Sequence record: NC_011040.1
DNA length: 39,816 nucleotides
Source of the DNA: Escherichia phage BA14
Reading direction: 5' to 3' (one strand)
The notes beneath the pieces are model-generated. The model ran no database searches, had not been told where the DNA came from, and saw only the letters and a list, made by a program, of their open reading frames with translations. The number at the start of each line of letters is the position of its first letter. Positions within the stretch are counted from its first letter, which is position 1. Both the position numbers and the translations under genes were made by a program. Positions 7,987 through 12,710 of the stretch are shown here, piece by piece.

Positions 7987-8020
7987 GGTCAGACTTTCGG
8001 GTCTGGCCTTTTCGTGTTTC
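7987..8020 (+). terminator. Intrinsic terminator after ligase (TE position)
   Basis: GGTCAGAC-tttcgg-GTCTGGCC 8-bp stem followed by TTTTCGTGTTTC. Confidence 0.6.
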
Positions 8021-8041
8021 TATTAGACTCACTATGGAGGA
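8019..8041 (+). promoter_or_regulatory. Phage RNAP promoter, divergent (tcTATTAGACTCACTATGGAGGA)
   Basis: Core GACTCACTAT retained, upstream half degenerate, initiating GGAGG as in T7 phi1.5/phi1.6 as I recall them. Confidence 0.5.
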
Positions 8042-8049
8042 ACAACCTC

Positions 8050-8130
8050 ATGCTATTTCTAATTATTGCTAGCGTTGCTGCCACGTTTGCCTTCGTTATC
8101 ATTGACGACAACTGCTGGCCTGATTGCTAA
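8050..8130 (+). CDS. Hypothetical 26-aa hydrophobic peptide
   Basis: ATG 9 nt after a GGAGG RBS; MLFLIIASVAATFAFVIIDDNCWPDC; lies between two phage promoters. Confidence 0.4.
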   Translation: MLFLIIASVAATFAFVIIDDNCWPDC

Positions 8131-8150
8131 TACGACTCACCTATGGAGGA
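8128..8150 (+). promoter_or_regulatory. Phage RNAP promoter-like sequence with altered -4 to -1 (TAATACGACTCACctatGGAGGA)
   Basis: Perfect -17 to -5 match, but four substitutions in the -4 to -1 melting region. Confidence 0.4.
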
Positions 8151-8157
8151 AACACTT

Positions 8158-8421
8158 ATGTTACGACTACACTTCAACAAATCAAATGGCATCTTCTCTG
8201 CCCGTGGCGCTGACCGTTCAACCGTTCTGGCCTCTGAGAAACACGCAGTCATTCCTAAAGTGCTTGGCTCGACCATTGAGTTGGCACCTCGTGTTCACGC
8301 TGTGATTACGACTGGCTTATATAAAGAAGCGACCACTGGCTCCCGGCCTTTCATTCCGGTTCTCGTCACCCGTTTCCCTAAAGTCCGTCTGGTGATTGCA
8401 CGTATCAAGGAGGTGTTCTAA
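8158..8421 (+). CDS. Hypothetical protein (gene 1.6 position)
   Basis: 87 aa from ATG 8158 with RBS GGAGGAAAC; the longer ORF-track start at 8143 lies inside the promoter and lacks an RBS. Confidence 0.6.
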   Translation: MLRLHFNKSNGIFSARGADRSTVLASEKHAVIPKVLGSTIELAPRVHAVITTGLYKEATTGSRPFIPVLVTRFPKVRLVIARIKEVF

Positions 8422-8792
8422 TGTCTGGTTGCATCGCATGTTTAGAGAAAGATGACCGCTACCCGCATACCTGCAAAACAAAGCACACCAGTGAGTGTAC
8501 AATCTGGAATGGTGCTGGTGTATGTAGTTGCACTAAGTCAGACAAACCACAAGATATAGAGGGTGTTCGGACTCCGAGCCACTATATGTTGTTTGATGAC
8601 ATTGAGGCTATTGAAGTGATTGCCCGGTCGATGACCCGCGAACAGTTCAAAGGGTACTGCTTAGGGAACATCCTTAAGTACCGCCTCCGTGCTGGTAAGA
8701 AATCCGAACTGGCATTCTTAGAGAAGGACATGGCGAAAGCTGGGTTCTACGGTGAACTGTACGAGAAACATAAAGGTAAGTGCTATGCTTAA
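8421..8792 (+). CDS. gene 1.7-position protein with N-terminal Cys cluster and a phage-typical C-terminal module
   Basis: 123 aa, RBS AAGGAGG; six Cys in the first 40 residues; the C-terminal pattern TPSHY...IEVI...LGNILKYRLRAGKK resembles a widespread small phage domain (DUF3310-like, from memory). Confidence 0.65.
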   Translation: MSGCIACLEKDDRYPHTCKTKHTSECTIWNGAGVCSCTKSDKPQDIEGVRTPSHYMLFDDIEAIEVIARSMTREQFKGYCLGNILKYRLRAGKKSELAFLEKDMAKAGFYGELYEKHKGKCYA

Positions 8793-8883
8793 ACCTAGCG
8801 AATGGTGTGAGCGTATGTTTGAAAAGACAGGCAACACCGACTACCTTGAATTATATAATCACTGGAAGGAGAGAGGACAATGA
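8785..8883 (+). CDS. Small protein (gene 1.8 position)
   Basis: 32-aa ORF bridging the 1.7 stop and the gene 2 start with overlapping start/stop codons. Confidence 0.45.

Positions 8884-10900: not shown

Positions 10901-12710
<1,810 letters not shown>

Follow-up and report, generated by a model that had tools for sequence, protein, structure and literature searches.

A gene 1.7 orthologue of Escherichia phage BA14 with a DUF3310 core and two putative zinc-binding knuckles

The gene 1.7 locus of phage BA14

The window analyzed here is the whole 39,816-nucleotide sequence of Escherichia phage BA14 (NC_011040.1). The locus under study comprises the following features, all of them on the + strand:

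8127–8149, + strand: sequence TAATACGACTCACCTATGGAGGA, resembling a T7-type phage promoter and preceding genes 1.6 and 1.7
8143–8421, + strand: orthologue of gene 1.6 ("BC10 family protein"), whose stop codon overlaps the start of gene 1.7 (translationally coupled)
8407–8415, + strand: ribosome-binding site AAGGAGGTG, read in the sequence 5 nt before the ATG
8421–8792, + strand, stop codon included: orthologue of gene 1.7, taken from the list of open reading frames, encoding a 123-aa protein of the DUF3310 nucleotide-kinase family
8430–8474, + strand: knuckle A (CIACLEKDDRYPHTC), residues 4–18, C4-x2-C7-x8-H16-x-C18
8484–8531, + strand: knuckle B (HTSECTIWNGAGVCSC), residues 22–37, H22-x3-C26-x8-C35-x-C37
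8532–8564, + strand: low-complexity linker TKSDKPQDIEG, residues 38–48, pLDDT below 50
8565–8789, + strand: DUF3310 core, residues 49–123, one short strand and three helices, conserved and putatively catalytic
8785–8883, + strand: orthologue of gene 1.8, placed by mapping the BSP161 annotation onto the window

The stretch 8421–8792 holds a single long open reading frame, that of the gene 1.7 orthologue on the + strand, and its translation begins with MSGCIACLEKDDRYPHTCKTKHTSECTIWNGAGVCSCTK, as quoted in the preliminary description. A coding role for two small overlapping frames (8452–8559, +; 8317–8502, −) was rejected because the substitutions fit the 1.7 frame only. The ribosome-binding site is a strong one and is unchanged in FE44, Carena, JSS1, S523, Berlin and T7. 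The stop codon of gene 1.6 and the ATG at 8421 share a T7-like TAATG overlap, and the end of gene 1.7 overlaps the start of gene 1.8 by 8 nt, likewise as in T7. The promoter-like sequence occupies the place of the T7 promoter phi1.6 and of a phage promoter of FE44, and it probably acts as a promoter. The order of the genes is ligase 1.3, 1.6, the ORF, 1.8, gp2 and gp2.5; the ORF was found between 1.6 and 1.8/2, 3′ of the ligase and the TE terminator, in the class II transcription unit. This order confirms that the ORF occupies the gene 1.7 position, as had been proposed for it.

The N-terminal cysteine knuckles

The 123-aa protein contains cysteines at positions 4, 7, 18, 26, 35 and 37, plus 80 and 121, and histidines at positions 16, 22, 54 and 117. 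The preliminary description had pointed to six cysteines in the first 40 residues and suggested a small metal-binding module; the six cysteines are there, and with two histidines they are consistent with such a pattern, which makes metal binding plausible. Cysteine represents 0.96% of the residues in a rough proteome derived from the window (40 ORFs, 11,556 aa), and the binomial probability of finding at least six cysteines in a 33-residue segment is 7e-7, a value that would be slightly higher for the actual cluster, which spans 34 residues (the maximum in the 33-residue scan was five). Over about 10^4 segments, we estimate the chance of such a cluster at roughly 0.01. Apart from the known zinc ribbon of the gp4 primase, the window contains no further cysteine cluster.

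Each knuckle has two closely spaced ligand pairs (C4, C7, H16 and C18 in A; H22, C26, C35 and C37 in B), and, judged by this pattern, residues 1–37 consist of two mini-modules in tandem, both of one knuckle type with three cysteines and one histidine. They resemble the classical short zinc modules, which are stand-alone units of about 15 residues with two ligand pairs formed by three cysteines and one histidine or by four cysteines. The spacing is C-x2-C-x4-H-x4-C in the retroviral CCHC knuckle and C-x2-C-x15-C-x2-C in the T7 gp4 primase-type zinc ribbon. In contrast, the x2/x8/x1 or x3/x8/x1 spacing of knuckles A and B and their terminal HxC or CxC match no curated zinc family.

Comparison of five close orthologues over codons 3–48 revealed 17 variable columns with synonymous changes only, versus 5 with amino acid changes. 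The codons for the cysteines and histidines of the N-terminal region vary only synonymously, I28V is the single amino acid change within the knuckles, and the linker (residues 38–48) holds most of the amino acid changes seen among close orthologues. Residues 3–48 are therefore translated and under purifying selection among close relatives.

Beyond these relatives, the strict knuckle A pattern was present in 84 of 122 close homologues, which carry from zero cysteine modules (proteins of 84–98 aa) up to three, and 40 of 150 distant representatives have an N-extension devoid of cysteine. In knuckle B, the H, C, WNG, C and C positions are unchanged across nine diverged copies; a survey of its carriers within the phage collection added the gp1.7 proteins of K11, SH2, phD2B, P6371 and BUCT788, and MAFFT misplaces sequences with a single B onto cassette A. 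A generalized knuckle, [CH]x2-3 C x7-12 [CH]xC, occurred in 106 of 270 N-extensions versus 2.2 ± 1.4 in residue shuffles, a control that ignores relatedness among the sequences. The only ligand sets in this spacing class were CxxC...HxC and Hx(2-3)C...CxC, so that every knuckle has three cysteines and one histidine. The four ligands are kept even where the spacers have been almost wholly replaced (compare HTSECTIWNGAGVCSC, HKDHCRSVLSFGACDC, HEAHCISRVGAYPCNC and HSFLCDYERSAGKKPCTC), the DDRYP loop of A is joined to B-type ligands in bridging forms (for example HDESCGMQEDDRYPCDC), and histidine and cysteine trade positions in a compensating fashion across the homologues. This pattern suggests that each knuckle may chelate one structural Zn2+.

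A different explanation, to which we give some weight while considering it unlikely, is that the Cys/His pattern binds no metal and that the N-terminus is a disordered, fast-evolving leader or linker whose cysteines are incidental or redox-active. AlphaFold gave no confident fold for residues 1–48 (pLDDT 47–61 with the full MSA; AF2 does not model metals), nor for the first 55 aa when these were run with their own MSA (pLDDT 50). Pfam searches with the isolated N-terminal regions of the ORF protein and of T7 gp1.7 returned no match at E ≤ 10, NCBIfam and PADLOC gave no matches, and the single PDB sequence match to the N-terminal region (E = 0.32) is attributable to chance; sequence and profile searches of the PDB with the protein matched no solved structure. 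Thus, neither the curated zinc-finger families nor the solved structures offered a counterpart for either knuckle. A search of the literature covered here for zinc in gp1.7 yielded nothing relevant. The absence of the cysteine module from some orthologues also favors a disordered leader. Nevertheless, such a leader would not account for four ligand positions that survive near-complete replacement of the spacers with compensating swaps, or for purifying selection that allowed one amino acid change in the knuckles against many synonymous ones, and the cytoplasmic location of the protein argues against disulfides. The catalysis of T7 gp1.7 has been reported to be independent of metal (PMC7693777), but catalysis without free Mg2+ is silent on a structural Zn site.

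The DUF3310 core and the relation to T7 gp1.7

The C-terminal segment, in which a widespread small phage domain had been suspected, turned out to be DUF3310, a family with 2137 representative clusters at 50% identity. Pfam PF11753 matched residues 49–110 (E = 5.1e-22; 78.1 bits versus a gathering cut-off of 24), PHROG 2585, "nucleotide kinase", also matched (E = 2.9e-60), and the AF2 model of residues 51–123 reached pLDDT values of 77–98 in blocks of ten. In an alignment of 150 sequences, the family-invariant residues (Y55, I64, G78, Y87, K94 and K106) are all present, as are those conserved in at least 98% (P52, H54, E62, C80, G82, N83, K86, R90, G92, Y110 and C121) and R88, which was also counted as near-invariant. 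We read the C-terminal 75 residues as a DUF3310 helical core bearing every family-invariant residue. Membership of the P-loop NMP kinases (Adk, Tmk, Gmk, T4 gp1) was rejected, as the protein lacks the Walker A motif GxxxxGK[ST] and the alpha/beta P-loop fold.

BLASTP aligned residues 2–123 with residues 19–196 of T7 gp1.7 (E = 1e-54, 94 identities), with 56 gap columns restricted to the variable N-terminal half. Residues 3–18 (GCIACLEKDDRYPHTC) are identical at 16 of 16 positions to G20–C35 of T7 gp1.7, and residues 46–123 share 87% identity with its residues 119–196, the same core that ends the T7 protein. T7 gp1.7 (196 aa), which lies at the same genome position with the same overlapping 1.6 and 1.8 junctions, is 73 aa longer; it has its own 18-aa leader (MGLLDGEAWEKENPPVQA) and a middle segment of about 60 aa (C-x3-C-x4-C-x2-C plus a ITLGEIRAMDPRK linker). 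Both are missing from the ORF protein, where they are replaced by knuckle B, which was not found in T7 gp1.7. The DNA alignment with T7-like relatives revealed clean, in-frame, cassette-sized indels in otherwise collinear DNA; the shorter length is thus explained by such indels in the N-terminal half and not by loss of the conserved core.

The close relatives differ in the same region. The protein of Salmonella phage BSP161 is 100% identical in amino acids, and that of Escherichia phage Carena, annotated as "nucleotide kinase", has the same 123-aa architecture and is about 98% identical. Taken together, the gp1.7 proteins of Erwinia phage FE44, Salmonella phage JSS1 and Carena (Berlinvirus) are 94–100% identical and carry knuckles A and B. 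FE44 and JSS1 have an additional 17-aa MGLLDG leader, encoded by a 51-nt indel straight after the ATG, whereas Yersinia phage Berlin lacks knuckle B through the clean absence of a 63-nt cassette.

T7 gp1.7 is known as a dGMP/dTMP nucleotide kinase (Tran et al. 2008, 2010, 2012); the 2010 and 2012 work reportedly describes forms of 22.2 kDa and 17.8 kDa, both active, and a C-terminal half that is enough for ddT sensitivity. The protein is also reported to be a high-order oligomer, about a 12-mer. To our knowledge, gp1.7, an unusual metal-independent kinase, has neither mapped catalytic residues nor a solved structure. Core conservation and the reported sufficiency of the T7 C-terminal half lead us to regard the catalytic region as probably retained in the BA14 protein. 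By analogy with T7 gp1.7 biochemistry, the core would move phosphate from GTP, dGTP or dTTP onto dGMP and dTMP and would thereby supply phage DNA synthesis with material from degraded host DNA. The dGMP/dTMP kinase activity, which does not require a divalent cation, has been described for T7 gp1.7 only (PMC7693777, PMC11897194).

We consider it likely that the ORF is the Berlinvirus orthologue of gene 1.7, a compact DUF3310 kinase with two accessory, putatively Zn-binding knuckles; the absence of T7's middle module (C-x3-C-x4-C-x2-C and its linker), which might contribute to oligomerization or kinetics, counts against this view. Since knuckles are swapped, duplicated or absent beside cores that are nearly unchanged, they do not seem to define the enzymatic activity, and most likely they would be small folded decorations for protein–protein contact or oligomer stabilization. 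The preliminary description had instead contrasted the shorter, Cys-rich protein with T7 gp1.7 and envisaged a different activity, in which a metal module would add a new function to a generic phage domain. The difference in length, the missing middle segment and a knuckle B foreign to T7 are compatible with that proposal, and so is the existence of further DUF3310 proteins (SaV, for example) without demonstrated kinase activity (PMC8306868). We nevertheless judge it improbable: T7 gp1.7 has an identical knuckle A, the core keeps all invariant residues, synteny and gene overlaps are as in T7, and orthologues whose cores are nearly the same differ freely in their N-terminal modules. The reported sufficiency of the T7 C-terminal half also speaks against it. 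Given that T7 gp1.7 contains both GCIACLEKDDRYPHTC and the DUF3310 core and aligns almost end to end, the contrast does not hold; a different activity is not supported, and nothing in the sequence points to one other than that of T7 gp1.7.

Even less probable is that the cysteines hold an iron–sulfur cluster or a rubredoxin-like iron with a redox-sensing role for the kinase; eight Cys/His ligands inside 34 residues could suggest it, but the cassettes are self-contained (three cysteines and one histidine), each is found singly in many homologues, and there is no CxxCxxC or other Fe–S signature and no Pfam match. Finally, we give hardly any credence to a true start at Met56 that would leave the Cys-rich part untranslated: it agrees with the shortened 68-aa CDS in the GenBank records of BSP161 and S523, and an internal start is present in T7 gene 1.7 too, but it would cut off the conserved DUF3310 residues V49, P52, H54 and Y55, has no good ribosome-binding site in front, is already contradicted by the overwhelmingly synonymous substitutions of codons 3–48 in the 1.7 frame, and disagrees with the long form annotated in FE44, JSS1 and Carena. 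An in-frame alternative start upstream of 8421 was not found. The BSP161 and S523 GenBank CDS (68 aa) should be lengthened to 123 aa.

Exchange of knuckle cassettes and its possible meaning

Judging from these comparisons, T7-like phages shuffle these N-terminal cassettes among themselves, and the exchange may reach beyond gp1.7. In Klebsiella phage VLCpiA2a, knuckle B is fused to PF18909. The dATP/dGTP pyrophosphohydrolase-like proteins with this domain (Klebsiella and Proteus Molineuxvirinae, e.g., VLCpiA2a) have the same knuckle B, here HESGCTIWNGAGVCNC, and a similar N-terminal leader, MSLVDG, with hypervariable knuckles ahead of an invariant enzyme domain, as in gp1.7, although their catalytic domain is unrelated to DUF3310. 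In five Molineuxvirinae phages, this enzyme domain shows 100% amino acid identity while the knuckles are unalignable, a combination that would fit an interface of phage–host conflict.

DUF3310 proteins are connected with such conflict in other systems. SaV of a Lactococcus phage and other PF11753 proteins have the DUF3310 core in common with the ORF protein, being distant relatives only, and their N-terminal extensions are unrelated to its own; these early or middle phage proteins recurrently trigger abortive-infection or immune systems of the host. SaV triggers AbiV (PMC8306868), and T7 gp1.7 triggers EfAvs5 (PMC11897194).

We tentatively propose, as a doubtful extension, that leader and knuckle form a mobile, hypervariable metal-knuckle module carried by two or more unrelated dNTP-pool enzymes of Autographiviridae, where it would serve as a conflict interface. 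The enzymes concerned would be the DUF3310 kinase and the PF18909 dATP/dGTP pyrophosphohydrolase; cassette exchange would diversify the module, keeping the four metal ligands alone, and the catalytic domains would stay under extreme purifying selection. In such a module, the knuckles might attach to a host target that varies, or they might mask the DUF3310 core, or act as its decoys, against the sensors that recognize it (EfAvs5 for gp1.7, AbiV for SaV).

The main value of this analysis lies in a correction: the ORF corresponds to an ordinary gp1.7 nucleotide-kinase orthologue, with no new activity. The gene itself belongs to a known family, and what is modestly interesting is the accessory module at its N-terminus, which is fast-swapping and unstudied. 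A constant enzyme core is preceded by small knuckles of three cysteines and one histidine that appear to be shuffled before it and before an unrelated dNTP pyrophosphohydrolase. Because gp1.7/DUF3310 proteins have lately been found to trigger bacterial immune sensors, this shuffling could matter more than the correction.

Genomic setting and identity of the gene 1.7 product

The stretch belongs to a T7-like Berlinvirus phage, and the ORF at 8421-8792 encodes a protein matched at 100% identity by part of Salmonella phage BSP161. The genes and signals follow the order ligase, TE-like terminator, two T7-type promoter-like sequences, 1.6, 1.7, 1.8, gp2 and gp2.5; the stop codon of gene 1.6 overlaps the ATG of gene 1.7 (TAATG), and genes 1.7 and 1.8 share 8 nt at their stop-start junction. 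Because this order and both overlapping junctions are as in T7, the preliminary description was correct in placing the ORF at the gene 1.7 position.

Features of the gene 1.7 region
7987-8018, TE-like intrinsic terminator, 3' of the ligase gene
8019-8041, T7-type promoter-like sequence TATTAGACTCACTATGGAGGA, at the position of T7 phi1.5
8127-8149, T7-type promoter-like sequence TAATACGACTCACCTATGGAGGA, at the position of T7 phi1.6
8407-8415, ribosome-binding site AAGGAGGTG
8421-8792, + strand, gene 1.7 orthologue of 123 aa, start MSGCIACLEKDDRYPHTCKTKHTSECTIWNGAGVCSCTK

Between both promoter-like sites, at the position of T7 gene 1.5, we also observed a strongly hydrophobic 26-aa ORF (8050-8130, + strand, MLFLIIASVAATFAFVIIDDNCWPDC), which is hypothetical in the BSP161 annotation.

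The protein matched Pfam DUF3310 (PF11753) at residues 49-110 (E=5e-22) and the PHROGs family phrog_2585, 'nucleotide kinase' (E=2.9e-60); DUF3310 is thus the widespread phage domain that had been recognized in its C-terminal segment. BLASTP aligned residues 2-123 with residues 19-196 of T7 gp1.7 (196 aa; E=1e-54): GCIACLEKDDRYPHTC is identical to T7 G20-C35 at 16 of 16 positions, T7 residues 119-196 share 87% identity with ORF residues 46-123, and all 56 gap columns fall between these motif and core blocks. At the DNA level, gene 1.7 of the window, Berlin, FE44 and T7 is collinear except for clean in-frame cassette differences. FE44 and T7 carry a 51-nt leader (MGLLDG...QAT) that the window gene lacks, whereas Berlin lacks a 63-nt cassette present in the window and FE44, which encodes the second of two N-terminal Cys/His motifs (knuckle A, residues 4-18, and knuckle B, residues 22-37); in T7, this site holds a middle module of much greater length. 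Given the BLASTP collinearity and the in-frame nature of these differences, the alignment with T7 gp1.7 is in substance full-length, and the suggested different activity finds no support. This makes the protein a compact orthologue of gp1.7, from a known, already annotated gene family. We consider it likely that it is a gp1.7 dGMP/dTMP kinase orthologue with its activity in the DUF3310 core, and that the two knuckles are accessory, probably zinc-binding elements that leave the identity of the enzyme unchanged.

Translation and annotation of the N-terminal region

The six N-terminal cysteines noticed initially were borne out (residues 4, 7, 18, 26, 35 and 37) and are accompanied by His16 and His22. 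With a Cys share of 0.96% in a crude proteome of the window, the binomial probability of at least six Cys per 33 aa is 7e-7, the value matching the actual 34-aa span being slightly larger, and the chance of such a cluster across ~10^4 sequence windows was estimated at ~0.01. Elsewhere in the window, Cys residues cluster only in the expected zinc ribbon of the gp4 primase (residues 17-49 of the primase-helicase, 10998-12710).

Codons 3-48 were compared in five close orthologues (window, FE44, Carena, JSS1 and S523). Variable columns were synonymous-only in 17 cases vs 5 amino-acid-changing, I28V was the single amino-acid change within the knuckles, and the N-terminal Cys and His codons switched synonymously (TGC/TGT, CAT/CAC). 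This pattern shows that translation covers the 55 upstream codons and that the N-terminal region is constrained. It follows that the 68-aa GenBank/RefSeq CDS starting at Met56 in BSP161 and Escherichia phage vB_EcoP_S523 is a mis-annotation. It leaves out residues 1-55 (window 8421-8585; L002 2501-2665; L006 647-811), and with them the two knuckles as well as V49, P52, H54 and Y55, which are invariant in DUF3310. The long form is labelled 'nucleotide kinase' in the FE44, JSS1 and Carena annotations.

Anatomy and distribution of the knuckles

Knuckle A reads C4-x2-C7-x8-H16-x-C18 and knuckle B H22-x3-C26-x8-C35-x-C37. The general pattern [C/H]-x2-3-C-x7-12-[C/H]-x-C occurs in the N-terminal extensions of 106 of 270 homologues, compared with 2.2 +/- 1.4 after residue shuffling, relatedness being ignored. 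Just two ligand combinations appear in this spacing class, CxxC...HxC (90 copies) and Hx(2-3)C...CxC (~27 copies), and therefore each knuckle has three Cys and one His. In the B class, H, C, C and C are retained while the spacers are almost wholly exchanged (HTSECTIWNGAGVCSC, HKDHCRSVLSFGACDC, HEAHCISRVGAYPCNC, HSVSCDWITSNTKLPCSC, HSFLCDYERSAGKKPCTC). Since bridging forms (HDESCGMQEDDRYPCDC, HLTTCDINRFDDDRYPCTC) join B-type ligands with the DDRYP loop of A, both knuckles appear to be variants of one module.

Retention of ligands amid spacer turnover is what a structural metal site would be expected to show, and in a cytoplasmic protein the most plausible metal is zinc; taken alone, zinc binding by the knuckles seems to us reasonably probable. 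The small metal-binding module initially proposed is thus plausible from its ligand pattern, but the N-terminal region matched no Pfam or PDB family. For residues 1-48, the AlphaFold pLDDT was 47-61 when the full alignment was used, and 50 in a run on an alignment made for the N-terminus.

Some of the architectures among 122 close homologues
A alone, 25
A + T7-type middle module, 28
leader + A + T7-type middle module, 16
middle module alone, 9
C-type alone, 7
no Cys module, 3
A + B, as in the window protein, 2 (3 counting a C+B form)

Other cassettes of the family are the C-x3-C-x4-C-x2-C module of T7, C-x-C-x11-H-x3-C, a four-Cys C-x2-C-x5-7-C-x-C type, classical zinc ribbons (CxxC...CxxC) and non-Cys SH3/KOW-like 'FKVGDKV' modules, the latter repeated in the wider DUF3310 family, whose extensions (P0121-P0268) are highly diverse and include Cys knuckles and long unrelated domains. 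Knuckle B is found at >=94% identity in about six Berlinvirus-like phages, and at ~50% identity, with different partner modules, in gp1.7 of K11, KP32, SH2, phiYe-F10, 2050H2 and phD2B. Three metagenomic homologues (P0002, P0004 and P0118) have an extra upstream knuckle, '...KPQDKEGVL' and then another in-frame start, 'MGLLDG' or 'MSTYDF'. Their N-terminal cassettes look tandemly duplicated or fused by read-through, which is direct evidence for cassette duplication.

Knuckle B is also carried by a second enzyme. In Klebsiella phage VLCpiA2a, an MSLVDGPS leader and HESGCTIWNGAGVCNC precede a PF18909 dATP/dGTP diphosphohydrolase N-terminal domain (E=5.7e-30), an architecture common to about 19 Molineuxvirinae phages. 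Five of them (Klebsiella and Proteus phage loci L012 347-769, L013 301-708, L014 301-696, L015 301-699 and L016 301-747) have a 100% amino-acid identical PF18909 domain, with synonymous DNA differences only, and knuckles exchanged outright with only the ligands H, C, C, C retained (HESGCTIWNGAGVCNC, HASGCTIWNGAGVCNC, HNPDCATQRGAPYCDC, HYLHCDLFKGGVNCSC, HSPHCSTQRGASYCDC). In Lelliottia phage phD2B, this genome position is instead taken by knuckle B followed by DUF3310. Because knuckle B and similar leaders (MSLVDG in PF18909 proteins, MGLLDG in gp1.7) occur on both enzymes, leader plus knuckle appears to behave as a mobile, hypervariable accessory common to two unrelated dNTP-pool enzymes.

The DUF3310 core and possible roles of the knuckles

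From the work of Tran et al. in 2010 and 2012, T7 gp1.7 is said to occur as 22.2 kDa and 17.8 kDa forms, both active, and to be roughly a 12-mer, and dideoxythymidine sensitivity reportedly needs just its C-terminal half. Some natural homologues agree with a self-sufficient core: P0108 starts at the internal Met of T7, and P0078, P0114 and P0115 (84-98 aa) have no Cys modules.

When 1.84 billion representative proteins were searched, 2137 clusters scored E<=1e-3. Among the 150 best hits, the domain is C-terminal in almost all (a few have tails of 13 to ~100 aa), and the N-terminal extension ranges from 4 to 269 aa, with at least four Cys in 42 and none in 40. In the 150-sequence alignment, Y55, I64, G78, Y87, K94 and K106 are invariant and P52, H54, E62, C80, G82, N83, K86, R90, G92, Y110 and C121 at least 98% conserved; the window protein has every one of these residues. 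This conservation fits the published description of the gp1.7 kinase, which is unlike all other nucleotide kinases and needs no divalent cations to phosphorylate dTMP and dGMP (PMC7693777; PMC11897194).

Among the residues conserved to at least 98%, H54 (8580-8582), C80 (8658-8660; in the motif GYC[LF]GNxLKYRxRxGxK) and C121 (8781-8783; near the C-terminus) are candidates for a part in catalysis, perhaps through a phospho-enzyme intermediate; alternatively, they may serve a metal site in the core or an interface. The gp1.7 kinase is reportedly metal-independent (PMC7693777; PMC11897194). Judging from how the helices pair in the AF2 model, C80 and C121 are probably not neighbours within a monomer.

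For the knuckles, we favour a protein-contact or oligomer-stabilising role. T7 gp1.7 activates EfAvs5 (PMC11897194), the DUF3310 protein SaV determines AbiV sensitivity (PMC8306868), and gp1.7 is mutated in retron-Ec48 escapers (bioRxiv 2020.06.21.156273), so that DUF3310 proteins (gp1.7, SaV) come up repeatedly as immune triggers. Because the hypervariable knuckles sit on such triggers, they might form a conflict interface, which we regard as unlikely. The main value added here is the correction of the annotation and the description of shuffled knuckles of three Cys and one His.
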